From NCBI RefSeq assembly GCF_016714285.1, contig NZ_JADJNN010000008.1:68669-132668 (forward strand): 64,000 nt of DNA. Reading direction: 5' to 3'. Positions 7,562-42,166 of the stretch are shown here, piece after piece. Origin of the DNA: Nannocystis sp. GTDB taxonomy: Bacteria > Myxococcota_A > Polyangia > Nannocystales > Nannocystaceae. The translations under genes were made by a program, and so were the position numbers. Positions within the stretch are counted from its first letter, which is position 1, and the number at the start of each line of letters is the position of its first letter. The notes beneath the pieces were generated by a model. That model worked only from the letters and a program-made list of their open reading frames with translations, searched no databases and was not told the origin of the DNA.

Positions 7562-8422
7562 ATGAGCCACCCCGCTGACCTCGCCGCCGACACCGCCGTG
7601 GAGCCGCGCGGCGGGGGGCACTACGCGTGCACGCTGCCGCGGCACTGGGACTACCTGTTGCCGTCGGGCGGGGTCCTGGTGACGCTGGCGTTGCGGGCGA
7701 TCGCGGCCGAGCTGGGGCTGCGGCCGGGGCTGTTGGGCGAGGACACCGGGGTGCGGCCGCTGTCGGCGACGGCGGTGTTCTGCTCGCCGGTGCCGGCGGG
7801 GCCGGTGGTGATCGCGGTGACGGTGCTGCGGCGCGGGGCGCTGGCCAGCCAGGTTCGGGCGCAGCTGTCGGCGTTCGGCGGCGAGGTCGGGCTCGAGCTG
7901 ATCGCGACCTTCGGGCTCGAGCGGCCGGTGGTCGACGCGACGATGTGCGCGGCGCCGGTGGTGGCGGAGCCGGGGGAGCTGCCGGCGATCGACCCGGCCG
8001 ACCAGACCTTCATCCCGGCCTTCATCCGCAACTTCGATCACCGGCGGGCGATCGGGTCGGCGTGGTGGCGGGCCGACGAGTGGGTCCAGGGCGACCGCAG
8101 CGGCTACTGGTACCGCTACCTGCACGCGCAGCGGCTGCCCGACGGGCGCCTCGATCCGCTGGCCCTGCCGCCGCTGATCGACACGATGCCGCCGGCGATG
8201 TGCTCGCTTATCGGGCCGCCGGCGCGGGCCTTCACGGCGCCGAGCCTCGACCTGACGGTGCACTTCGTGCAGGACACGACGAGCGAGTGGCTGTTGACCC
8301 ACGCCCGCTGTCGTGCGGTGCGCGGCGGCTACGCGACGGCCGACATCGAGATCTGGGACGAGGCGCGGCAGTTGATCGCGTACGGGACGCAGGTGATGAT
8401 CCTGCGCCGACGCGCTAGTTGA
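7562..8422 (+). CDS. acyl-CoA thioesterase-like protein (double hot-dog, TesB-like)
   Basis: 286 aa. Residues such as ...HFVQDTTSEWLLTHARCRAVRGGYATADIEIWDE... match the thioesterase II-like C-terminal domain. The reading frame is clean and follows mnmG on the same strand. Confidence 0.55.
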   Translation: MSHPADLAADTAVEPRGGGHYACTLPRHWDYLLPSGGVLVTLALRAIAAELGLRPGLLGEDTGVRPLSATAVFCSPVPAGPVVIAVTVLRRGALASQVRAQLSAFGGEVGLELIATFGLERPVVDATMCAAPVVAEPGELPAIDPADQTFIPAFIRNFDHRRAIGSAWWRADEWVQGDRSGYWYRYLHAQRLPDGRLDPLALPPLIDTMPPAMCSLIGPPARAFTAPSLDLTVHFVQDTTSEWLLTHARCRAVRGGYATADIEIWDEARQLIAYGTQVMILRRRAS

Positions 8423-8527
8423 GCCAGTCGCGGGCTGAGCTCCAGCGCGGCGCCGGCGAGTTCGCCGATGGGCCGGGCAGGCTGACGCGGCGGGCGAGCT
8501 CGCGCCAGGAGGTGCCGCTGCGGCCTG

Positions 8528-10094
<1,567 letters not shown>

Positions 10095-24819: not shown

Positions 24820-26638
24820 GTGACCGACGCATCACACAGCCACCTCGACTCCCTCAACCTGGGGCTGCCCGCCGACACCGAGCGGGCGGTCCGCCGGTGG
24901 ATCGATGATCCTCATTATGCGAGCGAGCGACCGGCGCTCGATGCCCTGCTCGCGGAGGTCGCGGGGGGCTCGGACGCGGCTCGGGCCGAGCTCCTGGATG
25001 CGTTCTCGCAGGTGCTCCCGATCGGGACCGGGGGCCGGCGCGGTCGGGTCGGGCCAGGGCCCAATCGGATGAACTCGGTGGTGGTGCGCGAGACGGCCCA
25101 GGGGGTGGTCGACGCGTTGCGTGCGGCCGGGGACACACCCCAGGTGGCGATCGTCTACGACACGCGGATGCACTCGCGCCAGTTCGCCTATGCGGTTGCC
25201 GAGGAGTGTGCGGCCGGCGGGCTGACGGTGATCCTCCTGGATGCGCCGCGACCGACGCCCGAGCTGTCGTTCCTCGTGCGACGCATGGGATGTGGCGCGG
25301 GCGTCGTGGTGAGCGCCAGTCACAACCCGCCGGAGGACAACGGGATCAAGATCTACGGACCGGACGGGGCGCAAGTGCTTGGGGCGCGCGACACGGCGCT
25401 GATGCGGGCGATCCTCGCGGCGGGGGATGGGACATCGGGGCGGGTCGGCGTGGCGCGGGGGCTCATCCATGTGATCGCGCCAGAACAGGTGCTGGAGTGA
25501 GGCGGACCGGCCGTACCACGACTATGTGCTGGCGCAGGGCGTGGTCCCGGGGTCGCTCGAGGCGCGGGGCTTCTCGCTGGTGTTCACGCCGCTGCATGGG
25601 GTCGGGCACACCAGCGCGGGCGAGGTGCTCAAGGCCCGTGGTCTGACCGTGCACCTGGTCGCGGTCCAGTGTGATCCGGACGGCGGACGGTTCTCGACCG
25701 TGGCGTCGGCCAACCCGGAGCTGCCGGTGTCGATGGCGATGGGGGTGGCGCTGGCGGAGTCGGTGGGGGCGCAGCTGGTGCTGGCCACTGATCCGGACGC
25801 GGACCGGCTCGGGGCGACCGTTCGTGGCCGGGATGGCGGGATGGTGGCCATCGACGGCAATCGCCTCGGGGTGCTGATGCTCGACCATGTGCTCGACAAC
25901 ATGGCCGGGCGGCTGCCGCCGAACGGTTGGGTGCTGACGACGCTGGTGACCACGCCCCTGCTCGCGGCGATGGCACGGGCACACGGGGTCGAGGTGGTCG
26001 ACGATCTCCTGGTGGGGTTCAAGCATCACGCCGGGATGATGGCTGAACGTCCAGAGAAGACTCTGATTTTTGGCTGCGAAGAGAGTCACGGCTATGTCCG
26101 GGGGGACGACATCCGCGACAAGGATGGGGCGATCGCAGCGTTGTTGCTGGCGGAGTGCGCTGCGGTGGCCCATGCCGAGGGACGCACGCTGTTCGATAAC
26201 CTCGAGAGGATCTGGTGCCGTTACGGGTATCACCTCGAAAAGACAGCTAATTTGGTGGCGCCTGGCCTCGCTGGTCGGCGCGCCATTTCGCATGTGATGG
26301 AGACCTGGCGAGCGGCGCCTCCGGCAGGCTTCGCCGGGCTGGCGGTCGTTCGGGTCGATGACCGCTCGCAGCCGCGGAGCACCGGTTCGGTCACCCGCGA
26401 CCTGCCCGGCGACGTGCTCAGCTTTGAGCTCGAGGGGGACGGTCGTGGCTGTCGGGTGGTGCTGCGGCCGAGTGGGACGGAGCCCAAGTTGAAGGTCTAT
26501 GCGCTGGCCCGCAGCGCCGCCAACTTGCCGCTGGACCAGCTCGCGGCGGTGAGGTTGGACATCGACGGGCTGATTGAACGGGTGCTGCGCGAGGCAGAGG
26601 CGGCCGCGCGAGCGATCATGCAGCCGCTGTTGGCCTGA
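24820..26638 (+). CDS. alpha-D-phosphohexomutase (phosphomannomutase/phosphoglucomutase), interrupted: frame 1 (24820-25500) ends at a TGA, and the remainder is in frame 2 from 25526
   Basis: The N-terminal part has the active-site Ser loop VVVSASHNPPEDNGIK. The C-terminal part has FTPLHGVG, the metal-binding DPDADR, GCEESHGY and the phosphate loop RPSGTEPK. Removing the single t in ctggagTgaggcg gives ...IAPEQVLEEADRPYHDYVLAQ..., a smooth join. Confidence 0.75.
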
Positions 26639-27962: not shown

Positions 27963-28090
27963 GCGTGCGCGACGAGGACGATCGTCCGGGTCGACATCGT
28001 GTACGACGCGCCCTAGGCGTGCGCGACGAGGACGATCGTCCGGGTCGACATCGTGTACAACGCGCCCTAGGCGTGCGCGACGAGGCAGCG
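27936..28090. repeat. 54-bp tandem repeat x~2.8 spanning the stop of the CarbopepD-like gene and the start of the kinase gene; each copy contains ...GTGTACGACGCGCCCTAGGCGTGCGC (stop TAG, then 2 nt, then GTG)
   Basis: gtcgacatcgtgtac recurs with a 54-bp period (about 27936, 27990, 28044). The third copy diverges after cgacgagg. Confidence 0.8.
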
Positions 28091-31000
28091 ACCCATCATG
28101 ACGAGTTCCCGCGGGGCTTCGGGAAGTTCGTACTGCTCCGCGAGATGGCCCGCGGGGGGATGGGCGCGCTGTACCTCGCGGCGGCTGGCGAGCATGGCGG
28201 GCTCGAGAAGCTGTGCGTGGTCAAGACCTTGCTCGCCGACGCCGATGCTGATGAGGACGGCGCGCTCGGTCGCCGCTTCTTCGATGAGGCTCGTGTGGTC
28301 GTGCGCCTGAATCACGCCAACCTCGTACAGGTGTTCGATGTCGGGGCCGTGGAGGGTCAGCTCTACCTGGCGATGGAGCTGGTGGACGGGAAGGACCTGC
28401 GGGCGGTGTGGAACCGCTGCGCACAGCTGCAGCGGCGGATCCCGGTCGACATCGCGGTGTTCGTGGTCCGCGAGCTGCTCCGCGGGCTGGCGTATGTGCA
28501 CGACGCGATGGGGCTCGGCTTGGTCCATCGTGACATCTCACCGCCGAACATCCTGGTCGGCTACCGCGGCGAGGTGAAGCTGACGGACTTCGGTCTGGCG
28601 AAGAGCGTGCTGCGCTCGGAGATCACGAGCCCGGGGCGGGTGCTCGGCCGCTTCAACTACCTCTCGCCGGAGCAGGCCCGGGGTCAGGCGGTCGACCGGC
28701 GCACCGACATTTATGCGGCGGGGATCGTGCTCTGGGAATTACTCACGGGGCGGCAGTTGTTCTCCGCGAGCGTGGCGAGCCACGGCGCGACGCTCGCGGC
28801 CGCCCGTGACCCGTTCGTGCGGGCGCCCTCGGAGCTGGTCCCTGAGATACCGGATGGCCTCGACTCGATCGTGTTGCGGGCCCTCGGGACCGAGCGAGAG
28901 CAGCGCTATCAGACGGCGGACCGCTTCCGTGCGAGCCTTTCGGAGATCCTCGCGCGAAATTATCCGAGCTGTGATACGGACCGGATTGGCGGGTTTATGC
29001 GCGACATCTTCGCGCGAGACCACAAATTTGAGACTCACGACTACGCGAGCTACGTTCGCGAAGATTTCTCCAGGGTCCGGGAGCAAGGTCGGGGGCAGGA
29101 TGCCGTCAGCCTTTCGGACTCCATGGACATCCCACGCCGGGGCCGACGGGCAGCAAGCGAGAGCAGGATGGCGGATATCGAGGAAATGGGCCTTCTCAGC
29201 GGCCACACAGCGAAGCCCACGGCGTCGACCCGGGAGGAGGCAGAACAGCGCTGGGGTACCGTCGTCGCCGGTCGTTACCGGGTCGAGGACCTGCAGGTCT
29301 TCGACGGCATGGGCGCGCTGTATCGGGCCCGCGACACCGAGCGTGGGGTTCCGTGTGCGCTGCGCGTGCTGCCGGAGATCTATGCCCGCGAACCGGAGGT
29401 GATGGCCCGCTTCATGGCCGACGCCCAGGCGGCGCAGGAGCTCAAGCACCCGAACATCGCGCAGGTGTTCGACATCGGCAAGCTCGACGACGGGGCCGTG
29501 TACGCGGTGACCGAGCTGCTCGATGGCCAGAGCCTGGCGACGATCATCCAGGAGGAAGGTCGCATCTCGCCAGGGCGGGCCGTCCACGTGGCCAGCCAGG
29601 TGTGCCGCGCGCTGGGCACGGCGCACGAGTCGGGGATCATCCACCGCGACTTCAAGCCCAGCAACATCGTGCTGGTGGCGCAGGAGGGCGACCTCGACTT
29701 CGTGAAGGTCGTCGACTTCGGCATCTGCTCGCACGTCGACAGCGAGCCGTCGACGACCACCTCACAGCAGGAGTTGATCATCGGCTCGCCCGATTACATG
29801 GCCCCCGAGCAGGCCGCTGGCGCCGAGGCCAACCCGGCGTGTGACATCTACGCGCTCGGGGCGGTGCTGTTCGAGACGCTGAGCGGGCGTCTGCCGTACA
29901 AGGGGCGCAACGCGATCGACGTGCTGATCCAGAAGGGTGCACGCGACGCGCCCCGGGTCACGGATGTGGCGCCGGACGTGCCCGAGGGGCTCGCCGACGT
30001 GATCGCGGCCTGCCTGTCGCGGCGACCCGAGGAGCGGCCGTCGTCGATGCGGGTGCTCGAGGTTGAGCTGCTGCGGGCGCTCGACAGCAAGGCGCCGCGA
30101 CCGGTGAAGAGCGCCGTCGCGGCGGCGCTGGCTGGCGCCGGGGTGCCCCGTTTGGACACGTCGGAGCGATCGGCGAACCTGCCGTTACCGCCTCCGCCGG
30201 AGAGCGCGTCGAGCTCGTCGATGCGGGCGCCGGTCAGCAACGAGGCGTCGGCCTCGGGGCCACGCACGGGCCCGGCGAGCGGCCCCAGCGGGCTGACGCC
30301 GGTGACGGCGATGCGAGAGGAGCGTCGGGAGCCATCGTCAGTGCAGCGGCCGCCTGAGCCGCTGGTCGAGCGACCGACCCAGCAGGACGTCGTCGAGCCG
30401 GTGCAGCAGAGCTCGAACGGTTGGTTGTGGCTGGTGGCCGGCGGCACGCTGATCATCGCGGCGGTGCTGCTGTACCCGCAGCTGTTCGGCGGCGGTCCGG
30501 TGCCGCCAAAGCCCGACGCCAAGGGTGGCGAGGTCGTGGTGAAGACCAGCGCCGATGTGGCCGAGCCCGATGAGCCCGACACGGTCGAGCCGGAGCCGCC
30601 GGTCCCACCACCGGCACCGACGCACGACCCGATGGTGATCGTGACCCGCGCCGAGCTCGCGCTGGGGGAGGGCCGGCTGACTGCGCCGGCGGGCAACAAC
30701 CTCTCGGAGTACCTGCAGCAGCTGGCCACGCTCGACGCGGGCAACGAGGCGATCGCTCGCCTTCGCGGCAAGGCGGTCGAGGGCCTGCTGGCGAAGGGCA
30801 GCAAGGAGCTGGCCGACAAGCACGCGCACGAGGCCGCGGCCTTCCTGCGCGAGCTGTTCGTGCTGGCCCCGGACAACAAGGACGCGATCGCACCGTTCAC
30901 GGAGGCCGTGCTCACCGAGAGCAGGATCTTGCGCCACATGAAGGCGTGGGACGAGATCCTGCCGCTGATCGAGGAGGTCACGAAGGTTAACCCCAAGAGC

Positions 31001-31156
31001 TTCGACGCGCAGATGCTCCGCGGGCAGACGCTCGCGGGCCTCGGTCGCTGGACCGACGCCGTCGAGGCCTACAAGGCCGCGACCGCGCTGCGCAAGAAGG
31101 ACAAGCCCGCCAAGGCGGCGCTCGCCGAGGCGAAGAAGAAGGCGGCGGGAAAGTAG
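27965..31156 (+). CDS. membrane Ser/Thr protein kinase with two tandem kinase domains, one TM and a C-terminal extracytoplasmic TPR-like domain
   Basis: Domain 1 has GMGALYLA, VVKTL, HRDISPPN, DFGLAK and SPEQ. Domain 2 has GMGALYRA, ALRVL (Arg in place of the beta3 Lys), HRDFKPSN, DFGIC and APEQ. The TM is WLWLVAGGTLIIAAVLLY. The start could be the GTG in any of the three repeat copies (27965, 28019, 28073). Confidence 0.75.
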   Translation: MRDEDDRPGRHRVRRALGVRDEDDRPGRHRVQRALGVRDEAATHHDEFPRGFGKFVLLREMARGGMGALYLAAAGEHGGLEKLCVVKTLLADADADEDGALGRRFFDEARVVVRLNHANLVQVFDVGAVEGQLYLAMELVDGKDLRAVWNRCAQLQRRIPVDIAVFVVRELLRGLAYVHDAMGLGLVHRDISPPNILVGYRGEVKLTDFGLAKSVLRSEITSPGRVLGRFNYLSPEQARGQAVDRRTDIYAAGIVLWELLTGRQLFSASVASHGATLAAARDPFVRAPSELVPEIPDGLDSIVLRALGTEREQRYQTADRFRASLSEILARNYPSCDTDRIGGFMRDIFARDHKFETHDYASYVREDFSRVREQGRGQDAVSLSDSMDIPRRGRRAASESRMADIEEMGLLSGHTAKPTASTREEAEQRWGTVVAGRYRVEDLQVFDGMGALYRARDTERGVPCALRVLPEIYAREPEVMARFMADAQAAQELKHPNIAQVFDIGKLDDGAVYAVTELLDGQSLATIIQEEGRISPGRAVHVASQVCRALGTAHESGIIHRDFKPSNIVLVAQEGDLDFVKVVDFGICSHVDSEPSTTTSQQELIIGSPDYMAPEQAAGAEANPACDIYALGAVLFETLSGRLPYKGRNAIDVLIQKGARDAPRVTDVAPDVPEGLADVIAACLSRRPEERPSSMRVLEVELLRALDSKAPRPVKSAVAAALAGAGVPRLDTSERSANLPLPPPPESASSSSMRAPVSNEASASGPRTGPASGPSGLTPVTAMREERREPSSVQRPPEPLVERPTQQDVVEPVQQSSNGWLWLVAGGTLIIAAVLLYPQLFGGGPVPPKPDAKGGEVVVKTSADVAEPDEPDTVEPEPPVPPPAPTHDPMVIVTRAELALGEGRLTAPAGNNLSEYLQQLATLDAGNEAIARLRGKAVEGLLAKGSKELADKHAHEAAAFLRELFVLAPDNKDAIAPFTEAVLTESRILRHMKAWDEILPLIEEVTKVNPKSFDAQMLRGQTLAGLGRWTDAVEAYKAATALRKKDKPAKAALAEAKKKAAGK

Positions 31157-31167
31157 CCTGCAGCGCC

Positions 31168-31190
31168 GCGCGACGAGATGCTCGTCGCGG
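31168..31190. terminator. perfect 9-10-bp stem-loop (gcgcgacgag-atg-ctcgtcgcg) 12 nt after the kinase stop; more hairpins follow in the convergent intergenic region
   Basis: The inverted repeat was read directly. A second stem, gctgagc-tgcgctg-gctcagc, lies about 40 nt further on. Then comes the palindrome ctgtccc-gag-ggacag at about 31271-31293. Confidence 0.35.
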
Positions 31191-31294
31191 CGGCGTGGCT
31201 GCGCCGGAGCGAGCTCGGGTTGAGCTGGCTGAGCTGCGCTGGCTCAGCGGGCTCTTGCTGGCTGAGCTGGCTCGGGCTGTCCCGAGGGACAGGT

Positions 31295-31510
31295 CTACTC
31301 GTCGCGCTCCATCTTCTTGCGGAGGCTGAGCGGGCGCATGTCGGTCCAGACCTCCTTGATGTAATCGAGGCACTCGGCCTTCGGGCCCTGCTTGCCGGCC
31401 TCCTTCCAGCCGAGCGGCAGCTCGCGCTCGGAGGGCCAGATCGAGTACTGCTCCTCGTGGTTCACGACGACCTTGTAGATCGTGTCGTCTTCGCGGTCTT
31501 CGCTGGACAT
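31295..31510 (-). CDS. MbtH-like protein
   Basis: [53 protein letters not shown] matches the MbtH family hallmark (VLVNxExQxSLWP...P.GW...G...ECL.YI...WTD.RP.SL). It lies 16 nt downstream of the last antiporter-like gene. Confidence 0.8.
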
Positions 31511-31526
31511 GCTGCGCTCCGATCGT

Positions 31527-33320
31527 TCAGGGCACGAAGCCGAGGACGAGGTAGACGAAGAGGATGCCGGTGATGGTGATCATCGCGCCGCCGAGGCCCC
31601 ACTCGCGGAACCACGACTCCTCGGCGGGCGGGGAGTAGACGAGGCGCTTGAGGTCGTCGGGGAGGCCGCCGATGAAGCCGTCGCGGACCTCACCGAAGGC
31701 GCGCATCAGCGGCGAGAGCAGGTGCTTCCAGCTGGCGGGCGCGAGGGTGCGATAGAACCAGTCGCTGTCGAGGGTGATCGTCAGGGTGCGCTTGAGGACC
31801 GGGAGCAGCACGAAGAAGGCGAGGCCCGAGAACAGCAGGAGCTGCAGCTGGGAGAGGACGTGGGCGCCGGTGTAGGGGACGTAGAGCTCGACGTCGGCCG
31901 GGGCCGGGAAGGGGAGGATCGCGTAGAGCGGCTGGTACACGCCGGGGACGCCGAGCAGCACGCAGAGGGCGGCGAAGAAGATCATCGCGGCGCGCATGTT
32001 CCACGGCGGGTCGGGCGGGCGCAGGCCGGAGTCCTTCTGGAAGAAGACGAACCACGGGAACTTGATGCCGGCGTGCAGGAACACGCCGGCCGAGGCGGCG
32101 GTGAGCACGAACCAGGCCAGCGCGAGGTGCTGGTCGGCCGCGGCCTGGTTGATCATCGACTTGGTGACGAAGCCGGAGGTCAGCGGGAAGGAGGAGATGG
32201 CGAGGGCGCCGACGATGCCGCAGACCATGGTGATCGGCATCGAGTGGTAAAGGCCGCCGAGGTCGGTGCACTTGCGCTTGCCGGTCATGTACAGCACGCT
32301 GCCGGCCGACATCAGGAGGAGCGCCTTGTAGATGATGTGGGCGAAGGCGTGGGCGGCGGCGCCGTTCAGGGCCATGGCGGTGCCGATGCCGATGCCGCAG
32401 ACCATGAAGCCGACCTGGTTGACGATCGAGTAGGCGAGGATCCGCCGCATGTCGTTTTCCAGGATCGCGTACACGATGCCGTAGACGGCCATAGCGAGGC
32501 CGACGTAGATGAGCAGCTCGGTGCCGGCGAACAGCAGCATCAAGACGTAGACGGCGGTCTTGGTGGTGAAGGCGGACAGGAAGACGGTGCCGCTCTCGGA
32601 GGCCTCAGGGTAGGCGTCGGCCAGCCAGGCGCCGAGCGGCGGGGCGGCGGCGTTGACGAGGACGCCGAGCAGGATGAGCCAGGCGGCGACGTCACCTGGC
32701 CCACAGGACAGGGCGTCAAAGCCGGCGGGGCCGAAGGCGAAGTGGGAGAGGGCGAGCGGGTCGGGTACGCCCTGCGACTGGAGGGCGAAGACGTGGGCGA
32801 GGATGCCGGCCATCAGGACGACGCCGCCGACGAGGTGGACCAGGGCGTAGCGCATGCCGGCGCGGGCGGAGCCCTCGGTGCCGGCGCTCCAGACGACGGC
32901 GGTGGAGCCGACGGCCATCAGCTCCCAGAACATGAAGAGGGTGAGGATGTCGCCGGCGAAGGTGACGCAGATGGCGCTGCCGGCGTAGACGAAGGCGGCG
33001 GGCAGCTCGACGCGCCAGCGCTTGCCGCGTTCGCTGGCGAGGCCGGTGATCGGGTGGGCGAAGAGGGCCCCGCCGAAGGCCATCAGCGCGAAGATGGTGG
33101 CGAAGACGCGGGTCGCGGGCTGCCAGGAGAGGACCGTCAGCTGCTGGTCCATGAAGGGCAGGGTGACGCTGAGGTCGCCCGGGAGGGCCCAGATGTAGCC
33201 GAGGGTGAGCAGCGGCAGCAGCAGGGCGACGGCCGGCGCGGCGCGGCGAAGCAGCGGGAGCAGCAGGCCGCCGAGGATGAGGATGACGCCCGGGGGCGGG
33301 AGGCCGACGGATTCAGTCAT
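31527..33320 (-). CDS. proton-pumping antiporter-like subunit (NuoL/MrpA-MrpD family, PF00361), 597 aa
   Basis: About 16 TM, with the conserved core [27 protein letters not shown]...[10 protein letters not shown]. Confidence 0.8.
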
Positions 33321-33516
33321 CGTAGTAGGTGTCCCTTCGCTTGAGCAGGAGGCCGACGACGAACTTGGAGACGAGGACCATGCCGGCGCACACGGCGAAG
33401 CCGTACCAGGCGTGGAACGCGAAGCCGCCGTCGACGCCGAAGTGCGGGTGGTGCTCGACGGCCGCGTCGGCGGCGACGAGCACGGCGAGCACCACGAGCG
33501 ACACGACCCACAGCAT
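33313..33516 (-). CDS. small two-TM membrane protein (67 aa) inside the antiporter cluster
   Basis: [67 protein letters not shown]. It overlaps the downstream start by 8 nt. Confidence 0.4.
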   Translation of the reverse strand: MLWVVSLVVLAVLVAADAAVEHHPHFGVDGGFAFHAWYGFAVCAGMVLVSKFVVGLLLKRRDTYYDD

Positions 33517-33542
33517 GCGGATGGTGGCAGGATCTTCGAGCT

Positions 33543-35126
33543 TCACGGCAGCAGGCCTTTCCGGAGCTGAGTGGCGAGGTCGATGGCGAGGTCGGAGTAG
33601 AAGAAGAAGGCGATGGTCGCGGCGGCGGTGCAGCACAGCGCGAGGACCATCGGCCAGGGCGCCTCGCCGTGCTCACCGTGGTGGCCGTGGGCGTGGCTGT
33701 GGTCGTCCTCGTCGCCGAACAGGCCGTCGGTCGAGCTGGCGTGGCGGCCCGGGTTGGCGGCGCGGGGCGAGGGGCGGAAGAAGGCGCGGTAGATGATCGG
33801 GAGGAAGTAGCCGGCGTTGAGCAGGGTGCTGAGGATGATGACGCCGACGACGAAGGCGTACTCGGTCTCCCAGGCGGCGGTCAGCAGGTACCACTTGCTG
33901 ATGAAGCCGGCGGTCGGCGGGAGGCCGATCATCGACAGGGCGCCGATCGTGAAGGCGCCCATGGTGAAGGGCATGCGCCGGCCGATGCCGTCGAGCTGGC
34001 TGACCTCGGTCTTGTGGGCGGCGGTGTAGATCGAGCCGGCGGCGAAGAACAGGGTGATCTTGCCGAAGGCGTGGGCGGCGATGTGGAGGGCGGCCGCCAT
34101 GATCGAGATCGGCGACAGCAGGGCCGCGGCGATGATGACGTAGGACAGCTGGCTGACCGTCGAGTAGGCGAGGCGGCGCTTGAGGTTGTCCTGGAACAGG
34201 GCGATGAAGGAGGCGATCAGGATGGTCGCGCCGGCGACGTAGATGAGCCAGCTGCCCTGGTGGTACTTGATGAGCGTGAGCGGGCCGAAGGTGTAGACGA
34301 TCACCTTGACGACGGTGAAGACGCCGGCCTTGACGACGGCGACCGCGTGGAGCAGGGCGCTGACCGGCGTCGGCGCGACCATGGCGGCGGGCAGCCAGCG
34401 GTGCATCGGCATCAGCGCGGCCTTGCCGATGCCGTACATGTAGAGGAGGAACAGGGTGCCGAGGACGGGCGCCGAGAGCTCGCCGGAGGCCAGGGCCTTG
34501 GTGAACACGCCGCCTGGCTTGAAGGACAGGTCGTGGGTGTAGGCGTAGGTGGCGATGATGCCGGCGAGGAGGAAGCAGACGGAGGTGACGACGAGGATGC
34601 CGAGGTAGGTCCGGGCCGAGCGCAGCGCCTCCGCGGTGCCCTTGTGGGCGACCAGCGGGTAGGTAGTGAGGGTCAGCATCTCGTAGAAGACGAACAGGGT
34701 GAACAGGTTGCCGGCGAAGGCGAGGCCCATCACGCTGCTGATGGCGAGGGCGAAGCAGACGTAGAAGCGGGTCTGGTGCCGCTCCTGGTTGCCGCGCATG
34801 TAGCCGATCGAGTAGAGCGAGTTGAGGATCCACAGGGCGCTGGCGATGAGCGCGAAGATCATGCCGAGGGGCTCGACCTTGAGCTCGAGGAAGACGTTGG
34901 GGACGACCTCGATGAGGCGCAGCGGCGGGGCCTTGGCGTAGCCGGCCCAGAAGTCGGGGGCGAGCACGCGGGGGACGATGCCGATGACCGTGTAGAACAG
35001 GGCCGCGGCGGTGCCGAGGGTGATGCCCTCGCGGAGGTTCGCCCAGCGGCCGGCGAGGGCGATGAGGAGGGCGCCGATCAGCGGGATGTAGATGGCCAGC
35101 AGCGGCGGGGAGAGGTCGAAGGTCAC
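33543..35126 (-). CDS. antiporter-like subunit (PF00361; NuoL/MrpA-like) with a His-rich C-terminal segment
   Basis: The GTG start overlaps the upstream stop (GTGA). Conserved regions include WLPAAMVAPTPVSALLHAVAVVKAG and AYSTVSQLSYV. The C-terminal part is ...DEDDHSHAHGHHGEHGE.... Confidence 0.75.
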   Translation of the reverse strand: MTFDLSPPLLAIYIPLIGALLIALAGRWANLREGITLGTAAALFYTVIGIVPRVLAPDFWAGYAKAPPLRLIEVVPNVFLELKVEPLGMIFALIASALWILNSLYSIGYMRGNQERHQTRFYVCFALAISSVMGLAFAGNLFTLFVFYEMLTLTTYPLVAHKGTAEALRSARTYLGILVVTSVCFLLAGIIATYAYTHDLSFKPGGVFTKALASGELSAPVLGTLFLLYMYGIGKAALMPMHRWLPAAMVAPTPVSALLHAVAVVKAGVFTVVKVIVYTFGPLTLIKYHQGSWLIYVAGATILIASFIALFQDNLKRRLAYSTVSQLSYVIIAAALLSPISIMAAALHIAAHAFGKITLFFAAGSIYTAAHKTEVSQLDGIGRRMPFTMGAFTIGALSMIGLPPTAGFISKWYLLTAAWETEYAFVVGVIILSTLLNAGYFLPIIYRAFFRPSPRAANPGRHASSTDGLFGDEDDHSHAHGHHGEHGEAPWPMVLALCCTAAATIAFFFYSDLAIDLATQLRKGLLP

Positions 35127-35245
35127 GGGGCACCTCCGAGCAGCGAGCGGGCGGCGGTCAGGGGGATGTAGATCGCCAGCAGCGGCGGGGAGAGGTCGAA
35201 GGTCACGGGGCACCTCCGAGCAGCGAGCGGGCGGCGGTCAGGGCG
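35081..35245. repeat. 80-bp tandem duplication x2 spanning the mrpD-like stop and the downstream GTG start (each copy encodes ...LTAARSLLGGAP* overlapping VTFDLSPPLLAIYI)
   Basis: Near-identical 80-bp units at 35081-35160 and 35161-35240, with 3-4 mismatches. Confidence 0.8.
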
Positions 35246-36714
35246 ATGTGGCCGGTGAAGGTGGCGTTGATGCCGAAGTAGATGCTGGCGCCGATCAGGG
35301 TCCACATCGGGATGAGCATCATCAGCGGGGCCTCCTCGACCGGCGGGGTGCCGGGGTCGGGCTCCTGGAAGTAGGCGGCCTCGACGACGCGCCAGGTGTA
35401 GACGACGGCGAGCAGCGAGCCGATGAGGACGACGGCGGCGAGCGGCCAGCCGCCGGGGCGCTCGAGGCAGCCCTGGACCAGGTACCACTTGCTGATGAAG
35501 CCGGCGGTGAGCGGGAAGCCGATCAGGCCGAGGCCGCCGACGGTGAAGGCGGCGAGGGTCAGCGGCATCTGTTTGCCGAGGCCGCGCACGCTGCGGATGT
35601 CGCAGCGGCCGGTGCGGTAGACGACGGCGCCGAGGGCCATAAACATGCCGCCCTTCATGACGGCGTGGTTGAAGATGTGGGCGACCGAGCCGGCGATGCC
35701 GTGGAGGTTGGCGAGGGCGAAGCCGAGGACGATGTAGCCGAGCTGGCCGACGCTCGAGTAGGCCAGCATGCGCTTGAGGTTGGTCTGGCGGATCGCGGTG
35801 ACGCCGGTGACGAGGATGCCGGCCGAGGCGCACAGCAGCAGGACCAGGCCGCTCGGCATCATGCCGAAGCTGAAGCCGACGCCGAAGATGGTGAAGAGGA
35901 AGCGGAAGGCCATGTACACGCCGACCTTGGTGGCGGTGGCGGCGAGCAGCGCGGACACGGCCGAGGGGGCGTAGGTGTAGGCCCGCGGCAGCCACATGTG
36001 CAGCGGGAACATGGCCATCTTCATGCCGAGGCCGGCGAGCAGGAAGGCGAAGGCGACCAGGACGGTGCGGCTCTCGAGGATGCCCGGCACGCTCATGAGG
36101 CGGTCGTGCATGTCCTGCATGTTGAGCGTGCCGGTGATCATCATCAGGTAGCCGATGCCCAGCAGGATGAAGCTGGCGCCGACGCTGCCGAGGATGAGGT
36201 ACCGGAGGCTGGCCGTGAGCGCGCCGCGGTGCATGTCCTTGCCCATGGCGATCAGGGCGTAGACGGTGAGCGACGAGATCTCGAGGAGGACGTAGACGTT
36301 GAAGGCGTCGCCGGTGACGGTGATGCCGAGCAGGCCGGTGATGGCGAGGACCCAGACGGCGTAGAAGAAGTTGACGCGGTCGGCCGGTATCTCCTTCTCC
36401 ACGCTGAGCTTGGCGTAGATGGTGGTGATGAAGCCGACGCCGCCGACGATGAGGAGGATGAAGGCGTTGAGGGCGTCGACGCGGTACTCGATGCCCCACT
36501 GGCGCGGCCAGTTGCCGAGCTCGTAGCTGACCATGCCGGTCTTGCTGGCGAGCACCTGCATCATCAGGCGGATGGTGAAGTAGAAGACGGTGCCGGTGAG
36601 GAAGGTGGCCCAGGCCCAGGGCTTCCAGCCGCGGCCGGTGGCGATCGTCAGGATGCCGCCGATGAGCGGGACGGTGACGATGAGGACGGGGAGGTGGGCT
36701 TGCACGTCAACCAT
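35203..36714 (-). CDS. mrpD: MrpD/NuoN-like antiporter subunit (PF00361), 503 aa
   Basis: Contains WLPRAYTYAPSAVSALLAATATKVGVY and AYSSVGQLGYIV. It overlaps mrpC by 8 nt. Confidence 0.8.
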   Translation of the reverse strand: MVDVQAHLPVLIVTVPLIGGILTIATGRGWKPWAWATFLTGTVFYFTIRLMMQVLASKTGMVSYELGNWPRQWGIEYRVDALNAFILLIVGGVGFITTIYAKLSVEKEIPADRVNFFYAVWVLAITGLLGITVTGDAFNVYVLLEISSLTVYALIAMGKDMHRGALTASLRYLILGSVGASFILLGIGYLMMITGTLNMQDMHDRLMSVPGILESRTVLVAFAFLLAGLGMKMAMFPLHMWLPRAYTYAPSAVSALLAATATKVGVYMAFRFLFTIFGVGFSFGMMPSGLVLLLCASAGILVTGVTAIRQTNLKRMLAYSSVGQLGYIVLGFALANLHGIAGSVAHIFNHAVMKGGMFMALGAVVYRTGRCDIRSVRGLGKQMPLTLAAFTVGGLGLIGFPLTAGFISKWYLVQGCLERPGGWPLAAVVLIGSLLAVVYTWRVVEAAYFQEPDPGTPPVEEAPLMMLIPMWTLIGASIYFGINATFTGHIALTAARSLLGGAP

Positions 36715-37186
36715 GGTGGTGGCCCCCGTGAGCGTGTTCGAGGCCGTGGCCTTCGGCGGCGGCCTCGTCGACGGCGTCGGCGGCGGCGCCGGCGTGGAAC
36801 TCGGCGAGGCGGTCGGCGATGTCCATCGCCTCGATCTCGTCGGCCTCGATGGTGCCGTAGCGGCGCTTGATGTTGATGATGAGGGCGAGGGCGACGGCCA
36901 GCACCGACACCGAGACGACGATGGCCGTCAGGATGAGGACGTGCGGGAGCGGGTTGTCGTAGGGGCCCTGGAACTTCTGGGCGCCGTCCTGCACGGTGGT
37001 CCACACCGGGGCGGTGCCGCCGTCGATGACGGCCATCGAGATGTAGTAGAGGAAGATGCCGGTCTGGAACAGGCCGAGGGCGATGGCCTGCTTGATGAGG
37101 TTCGGCTTGGCGATGACGCCGTAGAGCCCGATCATCATCAAGATGACGTAGATCCAGTAGTTGTAGATGCCGAGGACGCCGGTCAT
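36707..37186 (-). CDS. mrpC: MrpC/NuoK-like small antiporter subunit with a His-rich C-terminal tail
   Basis: MTGVLGIYNYWIYVILMMIGLYGVIAKPNLIKQAIALGLFQTGIFLY has three TM. The tail is AEGHGLEHAHGGHHHG. The start ATG overlaps the mrpB stop (ATGA). Confidence 0.7.
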   Translation of the reverse strand: MTGVLGIYNYWIYVILMMIGLYGVIAKPNLIKQAIALGLFQTGIFLYYISMAVIDGGTAPVWTTVQDGAQKFQGPYDNPLPHVLILTAIVVSVSVLAVALALIINIKRRYGTIEADEIEAMDIADRLAEFHAGAAADAVDEAAAEGHGLEHAHGGHHHG

Positions 37187-38388
37187 CGTGACTCTTCCTC
37201 CGCGAGCTGGTTGAAGATGTTGAGCATGACCATGCTGACGGTGATGCCGACGCCGTACTCGACGAGGGTCATGCCGAGCGCCTCGCCCTCGCCGGGGCTG
37301 ACGGTGTCGAGCATCGAGTAGTCGAGGAACTTGCCGCCGAGCAGGAGGCAGGCGGCGCCGGTGCCGGAGTAGACGAGGACGCCGAGGCCGGTGAGCATGT
37401 CGATGACGGGCGGCGGGAGCACGCGGTAGAGGGCGGGGCGGCCGAAGATCAGGGCGTAGAGGATGAAGGCGCAGGCGATGACGACGCCGCCCTGGAAGCC
37501 GCCGCCGGGGCCGAGCTCGCCGTGGGTGATGACGTAGAGGCCGAACAGGAGGATGAAGGGGATCGACATCTTGCTGACGACGCGGAGGATCGTCTGGTCG
37601 AGCAGGGGGGCGGACTTCTGGGCCTGACCCTCGCGCCGCGGGCGACGCAGCAGCATGATCAGGGAGACGCCGGCGGTGAAGATGACGGTCGTCTCGAACA
37701 TGGTGTCGTAGCCGCGGTAGGCCGCGAGCAGCGAGGTGACCGAGTTGGGGACGTGGCCGTTGAAGTCGTCGGGCGGGTGGAGGTGGTGGCCGGCCTCGGC
37801 GTGCTGAGGATGGCTTCCGAGGACCTCGGGGACGATGATGCCGTGCTGGGCGAGGACGGAGGTCTCGCGCCAGGCGGTGTCCTTGGGGTCGTCGGGGACG
37901 CTGGTGACCGCGCCGTTGAAGCTGCGGTAGGCCCGGGCATCGAAGCCCTCGGGCGGGGCCTGCTTGCCCTTGGTGCCGTTCACGAAGCCGACGGTCTGGG
38001 CCATCATCTCGGGGACGCGGAAGTGGTGGATCGGGGCCTTGGGGTCGCCGAAGCGCGGCATGTCGAAGGTGCCGTAGATGAGGGCGGCGCCGGTGAGGGC
38101 GGTGACGACAGCGGCCTTCCAGTGGACGCGGACCTTGAGCGGCTTCTCCTCGCGGGCGGTGTGGACGAGGGTGCCGATCAGGAGGATCGTGGAGATGCCG
38201 CCGCCGACGGCCGCCTCGGTGAAGGCGACGTCCATCGAGTGCATGTTGACCCACACGAGGGCCATCAGCAGCGAGTAGACGGAGGTCAACATCGCCGAGG
38301 TGTAGAGGTTGCGGACCTCGATGATGGCGATCGCGGTGACGGTGACGAGGAGGAGGAGGACGGTGTCGATGAGGACGACGCTGGTCAC
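37183..38388 (-). CDS. mrpB: MrpB-like subunit: DUF4040 (MrpA C-terminal-like) N-domain fused to an MnhB domain
   Basis: The MnhB signature is FILLFGLYVITHGELGPGGGFQGGVVIA. The N-terminal TM bundle resembles the MrpA C-terminal module. Confidence 0.7.
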   Translation of the reverse strand: MTSVVLIDTVLLLLVTVTAIAIIEVRNLYTSAMLTSVYSLLMALVWVNMHSMDVAFTEAAVGGGISTILLIGTLVHTAREEKPLKVRVHWKAAVVTALTGAALIYGTFDMPRFGDPKAPIHHFRVPEMMAQTVGFVNGTKGKQAPPEGFDARAYRSFNGAVTSVPDDPKDTAWRETSVLAQHGIIVPEVLGSHPQHAEAGHHLHPPDDFNGHVPNSVTSLLAAYRGYDTMFETTVIFTAGVSLIMLLRRPRREGQAQKSAPLLDQTILRVVSKMSIPFILLFGLYVITHGELGPGGGFQGGVVIACAFILYALIFGRPALYRVLPPPVIDMLTGLGVLVYSGTGAACLLLGGKFLDYSMLDTVSPGEGEALGMTLVEYGVGITVSMVMLNIFNQLAEEESR

Positions 38389-38705
38389 GGCTCACCTCCC
38401 GGGTCGCTCCGGGTCCAGGGGCGCAGGTCGTGGAGGTGCGCGGCCTTGGTGATCGCGTGGGTGGCGGTCGGGGCGGCGATCATGAGGATCATGCCGACCG
38501 AGACGACCTTGATGCAGGTCAGGACGTCCGGGGTGACGAAGGCCAGGCCGATGAGGATCAGGAACTGACCGAGCGAGTCGGTTTTGCCGGAGGTGTGCAG
38601 CCGGGTGTAGAAGTCCGGCATGCGGAGGAGGCCCAGCGAGCCGGTCAGCGAGACCACGCAGCCGAGCGCGAGGAGGACGGTGGTGACGATCTCGTTCCAG
38701 TGCAT
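38385..38705 (-). CDS. mrpG: MrpG (MnhG)-like subunit
   Basis: LGLLRMPDFYTRLHTSGKTDSLGQFLILIGL matches the MnhG LRLPD.Y.R.HA..K motif. Confidence 0.7.
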   Translation of the reverse strand: MHWNEIVTTVLLALGCVVSLTGSLGLLRMPDFYTRLHTSGKTDSLGQFLILIGLAFVTPDVLTCIKVVSVGMILMIAAPTATHAITKAAHLHDLRPWTRSDPGGEP

Positions 38706-38708
38706 GGG

Positions 38709-38972
38709 CTAGTCCAGGCGGCCCTTTTCGGCGAATTTGAGGATCGCGACCGTGGTGATGAAGGTGATCAACGCGTAGATGATCGCCATGTCGATGAACT
38801 CGGGTCGGCCGCTGATGTAGCCGAGCAGGGTGACGAACACGATCGTCTTGGTGCCGATCGCGTTGGTGGCGAGGATGACGTCGTAGACGGTGGGACCGAC
38901 GACGGCGCGGATCAGGATGATGAAGAGGCCGATCAGCAGGGCGATGGCCGTGAAGAGGTAGACCCACTGCAC
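38709..38972 (-). CDS. mrpF: MrpF (MnhF)-like subunit
   Basis: VQWVYLFTAIALLIGLFIILIRAVVGPTVYDVILATNAIGTKTIVFV.... The GTG start is 4 nt after the mrpE stop; the ATG at 39029 would overlap mrpE by about 50 nt. Confidence 0.6.
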   Translation of the reverse strand: MQWVYLFTAIALLIGLFIILIRAVVGPTVYDVILATNAIGTKTIVFVTLLGYISGRPEFIDMAIIYALITFITTVAILKFAEKGRLD

Positions 38973-38976
38973 GCGG

Positions 38977-39456
38977 TTAGTCCTCCAGCGTCTTGACGTG
39001 ACGCTCCATGTCACCCTCTTTGAGGCCACTCTCGGCGTCGGGCGTGAGGCAGTGGATGAGCATGCGGCGCTCCTCCACGATCACGGTCACGGTGCCGGGG
39101 GTGAGGGTGATCGAATTGGCGTAGGTGGTGGTGACGAAGGGGTGGCGGGTGCTGTAGTCGACCCAGGCCATGCGCGGGTCGATCGGCAGCGAGGGCGACC
39201 AGATCCGCTTGAACACGTCCCAGTTGGAAAGGATCACCTGCCAGGTCAGGTAGGGCAGGTAGAGGAGGGTGCGCGGGTAGAAGCGCGCGGGCACGCCCTC
39301 GTCGTCGAGCACGCCCATGCGGCGGCTGATCCACACGATGAAGGTGATGCAAAGCACGCCTGCGACGATCAGGAAGTTGTTGTGAAACTGCCCTGAGAGC
39401 AGCGCCCAAAACACGCCCAGAAGCAGGAACAAGGACAAGGCGGGCATCATCGGCAA
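38977..39456 (-). CDS. mrpE: MrpE (MnhE)-like subunit
   Basis: ANSITLTPGTVTVIVE matches the MnhE ITLTPGT motif, and there are two N-terminal TM. Confidence 0.75.
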   Translation of the reverse strand: MPMMPALSLFLLLGVFWALLSGQFHNNFLIVAGVLCITFIVWISRRMGVLDDEGVPARFYPRTLLYLPYLTWQVILSNWDVFKRIWSPSLPIDPRMAWVDYSTRHPFVTTTYANSITLTPGTVTVIVEERRMLIHCLTPDAESGLKEGDMERHVKTLED

Positions 39457-39586
39457 GATGACGCTATCCGTTTGCGCCAGACGTGCCTATGGGAAAGATC
39501 GCGCTCGGCGGGTCGGTCGGGGCGCTTGATCGGCGGGCCGCGGACCTGGTCGGCACCCGGGGCATTGGTGGCATCATCCCCGGCCC

Positions 39587-42166
39587 ATGAGTCCCGACAT
39601 GCACGGATCGCTGCTGCACCTCGGCTGGCCGCTGCTGTGCGTGCGCCTCGCGGAGGGGCTGCGCTCGCCGATGGCGCTGGCCCGGCTCGAGGCGGAGCTC
39701 GAGGGCGCGAACGGGGGGCTGCTGTCCGCGGCTGAGTATGCGGGCAGTGTGGCGGGCCGCAGCGCCGACGCGGACGCTGTTTCGCTGCGGCTGCGGGAGC
39801 AGGACGGGCTCGCGGCGATGCTCGCCGTGCAGGCGACGGATGGGGGATCCCCGGGGCTCGGCGAGGCGTTGGCGCAGACGAGCGATCTCCTCGAGGTCGC
39901 GCCGAGGGCGACGCGTGGGCTGATGCTCGAGGTGAGCGAGCTGTACGCGGTGTTGCAGCAGCTGCGGGCGGCGGCGGTGTGCGTCGACCTTCACGCGGCG
40001 GCGCGTGAGGAGCGGGGCTACGCGAGCGAGCCGGGGGTCGCGGCGATCGGGCTGCGGGTCGCGGCGCTGCGGGTGCATCGCGAGTTGATGGCGACGCTCG
40101 GGCGATCGCTGGGGCCCGAGGGGCCGGACGGGGCGCCGGCGGTGGTCGACGGGGCCAGCCCGACGCTGGCGCGTGCGCGCGGGCGGGTGCGGGAGCTGCG
40201 GGTGCAGATCGCCAAGGTGGCGCAGCGGCTGATGAAGCAGCCGGGCATCGCGGAGGCGCTGCAGGACAGCTTCTACACCGAACGCGAGGGGCGGCTGGTG
40301 CTGCCGGTGCGGGCCGACGCGTTCTCGCGGCGCGGCGCGGTGGCGGGGATCATTCATGACTCGAGCGCGTCGGGGCAGACCTTGTATGTCGAACCGGCGG
40401 CGCTGATGGAGGAGAACAACGCGCTGCGCGAGGCCCAGCTGGCGGCGGCGGCCGAGGAGCGCAAGGTGCTGGAGCAGCTGAGCCGGCTGGTGCACGCGGC
40501 GGCGGGGTCGTTGCGGGACAATCAGGAGCAGCTGATCGCGATCGACGCGGTGCAGGCGCGGCTGCGGCTGGCGGAGCGCTACGCCGGGGTGGCGCCGCGG
40601 GTGGGCGAGGATGTCCCGGAGGACAGGCGAGGGGTGTTCTGGTTGCCGCAGGCGCGGCACCCCCTGATGTTGCTTGCGGGCGTGGAGGTGGTGGCCAACG
40701 AGCTGCTGCTCACGGTGGGGGCGGCGCTGGTGATCAGCGGGCCGAACGCGGGCGGGAAGACGGTGGCGCTGAAGACGTTGGGGATCTGTTGTCTGATGGC
40801 GCAGGCGGGCCTGCGGCTGCCGACGAAGGGGGCGGCCTGCGTGCCGCTGGTGCGGCGGATCGTGACGGATGTCGGGGATGACCAGTCGATCGCGGCGAAC
40901 CTGAGCACCTTCTCGGCGCACATGCGGCACGTGTGCGAGGCGCTGGACTCGGCGGCGAGCGACGGGGCGGGGACGCTGGTGCTGCTCGATGAGGTGGCGG
41001 TCGGGACGGAGCCGGAGCAGGGGGCGGCGCTGGCGGAGTCGATCTTGCTCGACCTGACGCAGCACGGGGCGACGGTGGTGACGACGACGCACTACGAGCG
41101 GCTGAAGCTGCTGGCGGTGGCGCACCCGGGGCGCTTCGTGAACGCGTCGGTGGGCTTCGACCTGGCGGCGATGCGGCCGACCTTTCGCCTGCTGCTCGGG
41201 GTGCCGGGGCCGTCGAGCGCGCTGACGGTGGCGCGCCGGCTGGGGCTGCCGGAGCGGGTGCTGGTGCACGCGGCGTCGCTGCTGGACGACGAGCGCCTGC
41301 AGGTGGACGCGCTGCTGCAACAGGTGGTGAGCGAGCGCGACGCGTTGATCACGGCGCGGGCGGACGTGGAGAAGGAGCGCAGGTCGCTGGCGGATCGCGG
41401 GCGCGAGGTGGCGCGCAGGGAGGCGGCGCTGCTCGAGCAGAGCAAGAGCCGCAAGCAAAAGGCGTACGAGCAGGCCGCGGGCGAGCTGCGGGCGCTGCAC
41501 GGGGAATTGACGGAGCAGCGCAAGGCGCTGCGCAAGGCGCAGAAGGGCGGCGAGCTGCCCGCGGTGGCGGCGACGGCGGAGCAGTTGACGGCGCGGGTGA
41601 GCGAGGCGCGGGCCCAGCTGGCGGAGCAGCGGGAGCCGGTGGCGCCGGTGCCGGGGCGACCGCCGAGGCAGCTGCAACCCGGCGACAGGGTGCGGCTGGC
41701 GACGCTGGGCAGCGAGGGCGAGGTGGTGTCGGTGAAGGGGGAGAAGGTGGTGGTGCAGCTCGGGACGGTGCGCACGACGGTGGCGCTGGCCGACCTGCGG
41801 GCGACGAAGGAGCCAGCGCGGGTGAAGGTGAAGTCGCAGGCGGCGGCGCCGATGAAGCAGTGGGACAGCTCGGAGGCGGCGAAGCACTTCGGGGCGGAGG
41901 CGCTGGCGGTGGTGCCGGGGATCGACAACAGCGTGGATGTCCGTGGAGAGCGGGCCGAGGACGCGCTGCGGATGATGGAGCTGATGCTCGACGAGGCGAT
42001 GCGTCGCGATCGTGAGGTCGTGGTGATCATCCACGGGCACGGATCGGGGGCGCTGAAGAAGGCGGTGCGCGAGCAGCTCGCGGCGCTGGCCTTCGTCCGC
42101 AAGTCGCGGCCAGGGCTGCCGGTGGAGGGCGGCGAGGGGGTGACGGTGGCGTGGCTCGGGCTGTGA
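39587..42166 (+). CDS. mutS2: endonuclease MutS2 (MutS2/Smr)
   Basis: The ATPase Walker A is ISGPNAGGKTVALKT, with ...LVLLDEVAVGTEPEQG.... The C-terminal Smr domain is VDVRGERAEDAL...VVIIHGHGSGALKKAVREQL. Confidence 0.9.
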   Translation: MSPDMHGSLLHLGWPLLCVRLAEGLRSPMALARLEAELEGANGGLLSAAEYAGSVAGRSADADAVSLRLREQDGLAAMLAVQATDGGSPGLGEALAQTSDLLEVAPRATRGLMLEVSELYAVLQQLRAAAVCVDLHAAAREERGYASEPGVAAIGLRVAALRVHRELMATLGRSLGPEGPDGAPAVVDGASPTLARARGRVRELRVQIAKVAQRLMKQPGIAEALQDSFYTEREGRLVLPVRADAFSRRGAVAGIIHDSSASGQTLYVEPAALMEENNALREAQLAAAAEERKVLEQLSRLVHAAAGSLRDNQEQLIAIDAVQARLRLAERYAGVAPRVGEDVPEDRRGVFWLPQARHPLMLLAGVEVVANELLLTVGAALVISGPNAGGKTVALKTLGICCLMAQAGLRLPTKGAACVPLVRRIVTDVGDDQSIAANLSTFSAHMRHVCEALDSAASDGAGTLVLLDEVAVGTEPEQGAALAESILLDLTQHGATVVTTTHYERLKLLAVAHPGRFVNASVGFDLAAMRPTFRLLLGVPGPSSALTVARRLGLPERVLVHAASLLDDERLQVDALLQQVVSERDALITARADVEKERRSLADRGREVARREAALLEQSKSRKQKAYEQAAGELRALHGELTEQRKALRKAQKGGELPAVAATAEQLTARVSEARAQLAEQREPVAPVPGRPPRQLQPGDRVRLATLGSEGEVVSVKGEKVVVQLGTVRTTVALADLRATKEPARVKVKSQAAAPMKQWDSSEAAKHFGAEALAVVPGIDNSVDVRGERAEDALRMMELMLDEAMRRDREVVVIIHGHGSGALKKAVREQLAALAFVRKSRPGLPVEGGEGVTVAWLGL

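Follow-up and report, generated by a model that had tools for sequence, protein, structure and literature searches.

What does a gene for an MbtH-like protein (MLP) mean at the end of an antiporter operon in Nannocystis sp., and is that operon itself out of the ordinary? The locus lies in a 64,000-nt stretch of contig NZ_JADJNN010000008.1 (assembly GCF_016714285.1, positions 68,669 to 132,668, GC ~70%; this whole stretch is called the window), in which ten genes of the same direction run from 39456 to 31295 on the minus strand, with a very high GC content at third codon positions. The proteins of the window have their nearest relatives in Nannocystis and the Nannocystaceae. In order they are mrpE, mrpF and mrpG, a fused B gene, mrpC, genes for the antiporter-like subunits D1 and D2, a small open reading frame (ORF) termed x, the gene for a third antiporter-like subunit (D3), and the MLP gene. 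An initial annotation took the cluster for an atypical Mrp-like (CPA3) system and its pairing with an MLP, normally a partner of nonribosomal peptide synthetases (NRPSs), as unexpected. We find that the locus is very probably a stand-alone group 3 Mrp operon that has recently gained an orphan MLP gene, the product of which most likely has no role in the antiporter.

The gene content given in the initial annotation holds: each named family is found by Pfam, the small ORF is without a Pfam match, and the order E-F-G-B-C, three PF00361 subunits, a small ORF with two transmembrane (TM) helices and a terminal MbtH-like gene had been read correctly. All coordinates of the cluster refer to the minus strand. 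The mrpE-like gene (MNHE; 38977..39456; PF01899, E = 7e-30) starts at TTG 39456 (159 aa) or at TTG 39432 (151 aa), the latter being the call used in the near-identical contig JADKFZ010000004.1 (L082; a Nannocystis sp. metagenome-assembled genome [MAG], 99.3-99.6% identical to the window). It is followed by an mrpF-like gene with a GTG start (38709..38972; 87 aa; PF04066, E = 3e-14) and an mrpG-like gene (38385..38705; 106 aa; PF03334, E = 4e-24; TIGR01300, 84 bits against a cut-off of 63.1). The fused B gene (37183..38388; 401 aa) overlaps mrpG by 4 nt and encodes MbhD/DUF4040 (PF13244, 1e-14), MbhE-like (PF20501, weak) and MnhB (PF04039, 4.5e-28) parts, which confirms the DUF4040 domain, similar to the MrpA C-terminus, that had been noticed in the MrpB-type protein; the MbhD/DUF4040 and MbhE-like parts are the counterpart of the MrpA C-terminal domain. 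Next come an mrpC/NuoK-like gene (36707..37186; 159 aa; PF00420, Oxidored_q2, E = 5e-21), the MrpD/MbhH-type D1 (35203..36714; 503 aa; PF00361, E = 6e-63), the NuoL/NdhF-like D2 (33543..35126; 527 aa; PF00361, E = 1e-54; PF00662, Proton_antipo_N, weak), x (33313..33546; 77 aa), which overlaps its neighbours by 4 and 8 nt and has no assigned family, and the MrpA-N/NuoL-type D3 (31527..33320; 597 aa; PF00361, E = 5.5e-40). Within the cluster, neighbouring genes overlap by 4-8 nt or stand no more than 4 nt apart, except at the D1/D2 boundary and between D3 and the MLP gene.

This arrangement is common. A D3 alignment was used to scan a set with a single genome for each GTDB species. Matches came from at least 581 of these genomes, and 80 loci (L001-L080) were fetched. 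Sixty of the 80 have the identical nine-gene order E-F-G-B-C-D1-D2-x-D3, starting with mrpE and including the small ORF, and they span Alpha-, Beta- and Gammaproteobacteria, Gemmatimonadota and Myxococcota (Bradyrhizobium, Hydrogenophaga, Pseudoalteromonas, Colwellia, Magnetovibrio and Accumulibacter among them). Fifteen of the remaining 20 are truncated at a contig edge, and the 3' genes that they retain agree with this order; four (L031, L064, L076 and L077) are missing E-F-G-B upstream of C-D1-D2-x-D3, and one (L015) has only x-D3, on a complete chromosome. In L031, L076 and L077, which are MAGs of Gammaproteobacteria/Legionellales, distantly related PF00361-like genes replace E-F-G-B in the fetched region. 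Across most of these phyla the D3 proteins share 56-65% identity, falling to 52% at the most distant locus, and a score of E ≤ 1e-10 against D3 is reached by 8000 database proteins. Two NCBIfam equivalogs already cover the family: D3 passes NF009310 (635.2 bits, cut-off 564) and the fused B passes NF009161 (301.6 bits, cut-off 272). Clustering of the flanking ORFs at the 60 loci yields no conserved flanking gene, the widest family being present at 12 of 60. With no conserved partner, the cluster is best seen as an antiporter complete in itself and not as part of a respiratory enzyme.

The three antiporter-like subunits differ in their affinities. Among solved structures, D1 is closest to MbsH (6u8y_H), MbhH (6cfw_H) and MrpD (7qru_D), and D2 to NuoL (8e9g_L) and NdhF (6hum_F). 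The top sequence match of D3 is MbsH' (6u8y_X), with MrpA also near, and MrpA chains rank first in Foldseek (6z16_A, 7qru_A). An AlphaFold2 model of D3 (predicted TM-score 0.78) has a 14-TM core, TM15 (residues 485-505), a helix of ~30 residues (519-548, modelled at low confidence) and a terminal TM helix (576-595). The canonical TM5 Glu, TM7 Lys, TM8 His/His/Lys and TM12 Lys, read from the translations, are kept in D1, D2 and D3. They lie in the motifs LLEISS, TKVGVY, HIFNHAVMK and GFISKW of D1 and in FYEMLT, VKAGVF, HIAAHAFGK and GFISKW of D2; in D3, the proton-path residues E133, K254, H324/H328/K332 and K387 are invariant in the alignment. In functional terms, the canonical MrpA is divided between two proteins of this system: D3 has the antiporter module and the short lateral helix, and the C-terminal domain is fused to MrpB.

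Group 3 Mrp systems are defined by the lack of an intact mrpA, the presence of at least one mrpD and a gene order that is irregular (PMC8415708). The cluster encodes MrpB, C, D, E, F and G homologues along with counterparts of both MrpA parts (Pfam, NCBIfam), which places it in Mrp/CPA3; no protein joins PF00361 with MbhD/MnhB and there are three separate PF00361 genes, which places it in group 3 (Swartz 2005; Ito 2017; Haja 2021). It shares with stand-alone group 3 systems the succession of E-F-G, a B-type gene, C and then D copies, the association of an MbhD/E domain with B, the several mrpD genes and the absence of an attached redox module. The stand-alone mrpEFGBB'CD of P. furiosus is a Na+-coupled antiporter (PMC8415708, PMC5703873), and genome papers name 'MrpEFGBBCDD' in the Solemya velum symbiont (PMC4287430) and 'Mnh/MrpEFGBCD1D2D3' in Verruconatronum (PMC13274419). 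Unlike the group 3 examples, the window has B' and B fused into one protein; it has three D-type subunits where the P. furiosus type has one, and it has x between D2 and D3, an ORF that the cited group 3 papers do not mention. Every subunit of the canonical group 1/2 mrpABCDEFG (Bacillus, Anoxybacillus, Dietzia; 6z16, 7qru, 7d3u) has a homologue here, and D3 folds like the N-terminal module of MrpA, with the C-terminal helix and anchor also present and the charged residues of the proton path kept. In contrast to the canonical system, the genes stand in a permuted order, and the parts of MrpA are separate, the antiporter module being in D3 (or D2) and the C-terminal domain in the fused B; x and one further antiporter-like subunit come in addition. 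A literature search found no paper on the biochemical characterization of the three-D subtype, and searches for mrpD3 or D1D2D3 returned only irrelevant grant-number matches. On the conserved order, the NCBIfam equivalogs and the published names (PMC8415708, PMC4287430, PMC13274419), the label 'atypical' does not stand: the locus is an ordinary, widespread group 3 Mrp operon of an arrangement that has already been recognised.

The MLP gene (31295..31510; 71 aa) has a much narrower distribution. Its product matches PF03621 over the whole model (positions 1-53 of 53, 84.8 bits, E = 2.7e-24), has the conserved Trp/Pro core, including LPLGW...VWTDMRPLS, and shares 80-88% identity with annotated MLPs from Tistrella, Cystobacter, Longimicrobium and others. 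The gene does lie 16 nt behind the last antiporter gene, as the initial annotation had it, measured from the D3 stop to the MLP ATG. A GGAG Shine-Dalgarno sequence precedes the ATG by 8 nt. An identical MLP follows D3 in L082-L086, and 15 further contigs carry an MLP that is 97% identical; in all five of these that are shown, the gene follows a D3-type gene after a 16-nt gap and, where the contig is long enough, stands ahead of a convergent downstream gene (a kinase in L094). In L093 the MLP gene follows D3 after a 24-nt gap and the downstream genes are different. In the MLP-bearing loci compared (L093, L096, L097), D3 is at least 92.1% identical to that of the window at the DNA level.

The MLP gene is absent from the same site in five relatives, in which D3 is less similar at the DNA level: L092 (89.6%), L089 (88.3%), L087/88 (88.5%), L091 (85.4%) and N. 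exedens L081 (83.2%). These relatives are syntenic, with MutS2 or Mrp genes upstream, a convergent kinase directly downstream in all except L081, and D3 proteins that are 82-92% identical to that of the window. The gene is also absent from all 80 distant loci, and a tblastn search (E ≤ 10) for MLP remnants in 86 MLP-less loci returned nothing beyond noise. From these presences and absences, the simplest reading would be a single, recent gain of the MLP gene in one species-level lineage. The initial annotation had named two findings that would speak against its own view, an adjacency local to this genome and the grouping of the cluster with a described Mrp subtype of the same order. We count both as made, since the pairing is confined to one species-level clade and the cluster falls in group 3 Mrp.

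The 3' boundary of the operon bears on the position of the MLP gene. In the MLP-less L092, a GC-rich hairpin (CTGTCC-N4-GGACAG; 5800-5820) stands directly after the D3 stop, and a near-identical hairpin stands directly after the MLP stop in the window (CTGTCCC-TCGG-GGACAG; 31272..31294, minus strand) and in L093 (6052-6072). A 151-nt region here folds with z = -6.8, and the hairpin is likely to be the end of the transcription unit. As the MLP gene lies between the D3 stop and this terminal hairpin, its co-transcription by read-through is plausible. A scan of 30900-40000 gave no sigma-70-like promoter and no T-rich terminator, a result that is uninformative in a myxobacterium of 70% GC. Similar GTCC...GGAC hairpins are present in the spacers downstream of D3 in L081 and L089 and may be a repeated element in Nannocystis genomes. 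The L089 spacer also holds an 836-bp non-coding insert between D3 and the kinase (7794-8631) with inverted repeat copies at its ends (GACGACGTCGCACGTGCCGGCGC...), which suggests an element similar to a miniature inverted-repeat transposable element at the same intergenic hotspot that received the MLP gene in the window.

We therefore favor the following picture. E, F, G, the fused B, C, D1, D2, D3 and x would assemble into a three-module Mrp that works like the solved Mrp complexes; by analogy with these, protons would pass through the three antiporter-like modules, with the cation moving near the end formed by the MrpA C-terminal part, B, C, E, F and G, and we infer that the proton-motive force is used to expel Na+ (or K+). 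The MLP gene would have been gained between the D3 stop and the terminal hairpin in a recent ancestor of one species-level clade of Nannocystis, and probably owes its transcription to read-through from the mrp promoter. Its product would, most likely, act as an orphan MLP that chaperones or activates the adenylation domains of NRPSs encoded elsewhere.

Several points weigh against this picture. Na+/H+ specificity is assigned to the three-D subtype by analogy only, and the Mrp of Thermomicrobium roseum has been reported to carry out Ca2+/H+ antiport (PMC5703873). Co-transcription of the MLP gene is plausible from three features of the sequence: the gap of 16 nt, the Shine-Dalgarno motif and where the hairpin lies. 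NRPS genes elsewhere in this genome are assumed from general knowledge of Nannocystis. In addition, the MLP gene has been kept at this site in at least 20 metagenomic contigs under strong purifying selection, with a ratio of nonsynonymous to synonymous polymorphism (pN/pS) of 0.05 within the clade (against L096 and L097); this retention is compatible with a benefit from expression together with mrp and does not require it.

Two features mark the antiporter family as a whole, and one alternative reading draws on them. The small subunit x sits between D2 and D3 in 77 of the 80 loci (the other three are cut inside D3) and in the loci of the Nannocystis group, aligns across phyla, and has two TM helices, the motif HPHFG(I/V)DG.FGF.AWYGF..C and a C-terminal KR.DTYYD. 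Its relatives form 526 clusters at 50% identity (E ≤ 1e-3), and neither Pfam (searched with single sequences and with 24 members), NCBIfam nor a PDB profile search gives a credible family match. The best PDB-profile match, TM6SF1 (E = 0.02), was dismissed as a match of hydrophobic sequence. Subunit x appears to be a real, unannotated subunit specific to this Mrp subtype, and only a mildly new element. A second family trait is the motif HGEAP ahead of the last TM helix of D2, which is near-universal (53 of 71 members). It is conceivable, if unlikely, that the E-F-G-B-C-D1-D2-x-D3 family is a functionally distinct Mrp with three pumps, in which x and the (often His-rich) D2 loop by HGEAP alter the stoichiometry, the ion specificity or the sensing of pH or metals relative to the two-pump Mrp antiporters that have been characterised. 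That such a system has co-opted the MLP in this Nannocystis clade is less likely.

A related proposal, to which we give a lower probability still, is that the His-rich segments let the subtype transport or sense divalent metal cations or protons, in which case it would not be a Na+/H+ antiporter. The initial annotation had described two subunits with His-rich tails. Both stretches exist, yet only one, AEGHGLEHAHGGHHHG, is a tail, at the C-terminus of the small MrpC/NuoK-like subunit; the other, DEDDHSHAHGHHGEHGE, lies inside D2, in a loop that precedes the last TM helix (about 33650-33720). The proposal draws on the D2 loop before HGEAP, which has three or more His in 31 of 71 members, on the final 130 residues of D2, which in some Myxococcota (L004 and L035, for example) include as many as 15 His, on the tail of MrpC in the Nannocystis group, and on the Ca2+/H+ Mrp already mentioned (PMC5703873). 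Set against this, both the length and the His content of the D2 loop are highly variable, with 0-1 His in 30 of 71 members; the His-rich MrpC tail is limited to the Nannocystis group and is elsewhere short, acidic and poor in or free of His; and the only widely conserved His is the one in HGEAP. The pattern resembles low-complexity expansion in high-GC lineages, and the segments look like variable low-complexity sequence. Metal binding, which the initial annotation took the stretches to hint at, is neither supported nor excluded by this comparison, in which the stretches are not conserved in the family.

For the MLP gene itself, the competing explanation is recruitment as an accessory of the antiporter, for example as a chaperone of folding or assembly or as a regulator, so that its place in the operon would reflect a functional link. 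The tight 16-nt junction inside the terminal hairpin would fit this, as would the retention of the position in ~20 contigs at the pN/pS given above. Yet, in a family seen in at least 581 species, the MLP is absent from all 80 distant loci and from syntenic relatives with D3 83-90% identical at the DNA level, and in sequence it is a standard MLP, the core of which shows no changes specific to the lineage. To our knowledge, MLPs act only as binders of adenylation domains. Orphan MLPs are also documented in myxobacteria: MXAN_3118 of M. xanthus lies outside any biosynthetic gene cluster and interacts with seven NRPSs (PMC7593251). The MLP of the window is likewise a small, canonical myxobacterial MLP encoded outside an NRPS cluster; it differs from MXAN_3118 in its place at the 3' end of a transporter operon, and NRPS partners have been shown for MXAN_3118, whereas the present analysis covers 64 kb of the genome. 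The search for an NRPS partner suggested by the initial annotation found none within the window: among ~40 ORFs, Pfam identifies no AMP-binding, condensation or peptidyl carrier protein (PCP) gene, and a regular-expression search in six frames gives none of the core motifs of adenylation, condensation or PCP domains. A homologue of the MLP in another organism (86% identical) is also not beside an NRPS. Recruitment by the antiporter is very unlikely in our estimation. The pairing, found in a narrow clade and absent from five syntenic relatives and all distant loci, is not borne out as a meaningful one; it is most likely an accident of gene placement, with no functional link indicated.

Finally, that the cluster is the membrane arm of an Mbh/Mbx/Mbs-like or complex-I-like redox pump with its peripheral arm encoded elsewhere is the least probable of the explanations, for while the gene order equals mbhA-H, D1 and D3 are nearest in sequence to MbsH/MbhH and MbsH' (6cfw, 6u8y) and three antiporter-like subunits recall NuoL, NuoM and NuoN, there is no MbhJ-N (NuoB/C/D/H/I-like) gene in or near the cluster and no other gene conserved beside it at any of the 60 loci, which come from several phyla, the cluster lacks a connecting subunit of the NuoH/MbhM type, there is neither a NuoH/MbhM-like nor a peripheral-arm (NuoB/C/D/I-like) gene in the 64-kb window, and the stand-alone Mrp of P. 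furiosus, which has the same order, acts as an antiporter (PMC8415708). A respiratory complex had been considered as a reading of the family and was rejected on the flanking genes, no family of which extends beyond 12 of 60 loci.

A local irregularity affects ORF calling in the window. An 80-nt tandem duplication (35082..35241, minus strand; two copies, 78 of 80 positions identical) takes in both the stop codon of D1, in copy 1, and the true start codon of D2, GTG 35126, in copy 2. The duplication adds a chimeric mini-ORF of 27 codons (35123-35206) between D1 and D2, with GTGA stop/start overlaps at both ends, and leaves D1 and D2 intact. L082 lacks it, and either a difference between strains or an artefact of assembly could account for it. 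Downstream of the operon and convergent to it, 28073-31156 (plus strand) encodes a protein of 1027 aa in which two Ser/Thr kinase domains in tandem are combined with TPR repeats. The kinase keeps this position in most close relatives of the Nannocystis group; L092 has a shorter, single-kinase protein, and N. exedens has a PAS/HisKA hybrid kinase and a VIT/VWA gene there, with the kinase displaced. Farther along, a phosphoglucomutase gene is split into two frames (24820-25500 and 25526-26638, plus strand) and is intact in L082 (605 aa); either a frameshift/pseudogene or a sequencing error would account for the split.

For the organism, the consequence is that this locus should not be used for proposing a link between antiporters and NRPSs. 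It does place an orphan MLP gene, we infer, under the transcription of a housekeeping operon, which may bear on how NRPS-rich myxobacteria obtain a constitutive supply of MLP. For the family, a widespread three-D group 3 Mrp with a strongly conserved x has apparently never been studied biochemically or structurally, and it is a natural system in which to ask how the number of antiporter-like modules sets the H+/cation stoichiometry. If the three modules do make it a functionally distinct pump, it would correspond, in free-standing form, to the L-M-N membrane arm that is part of complex I.

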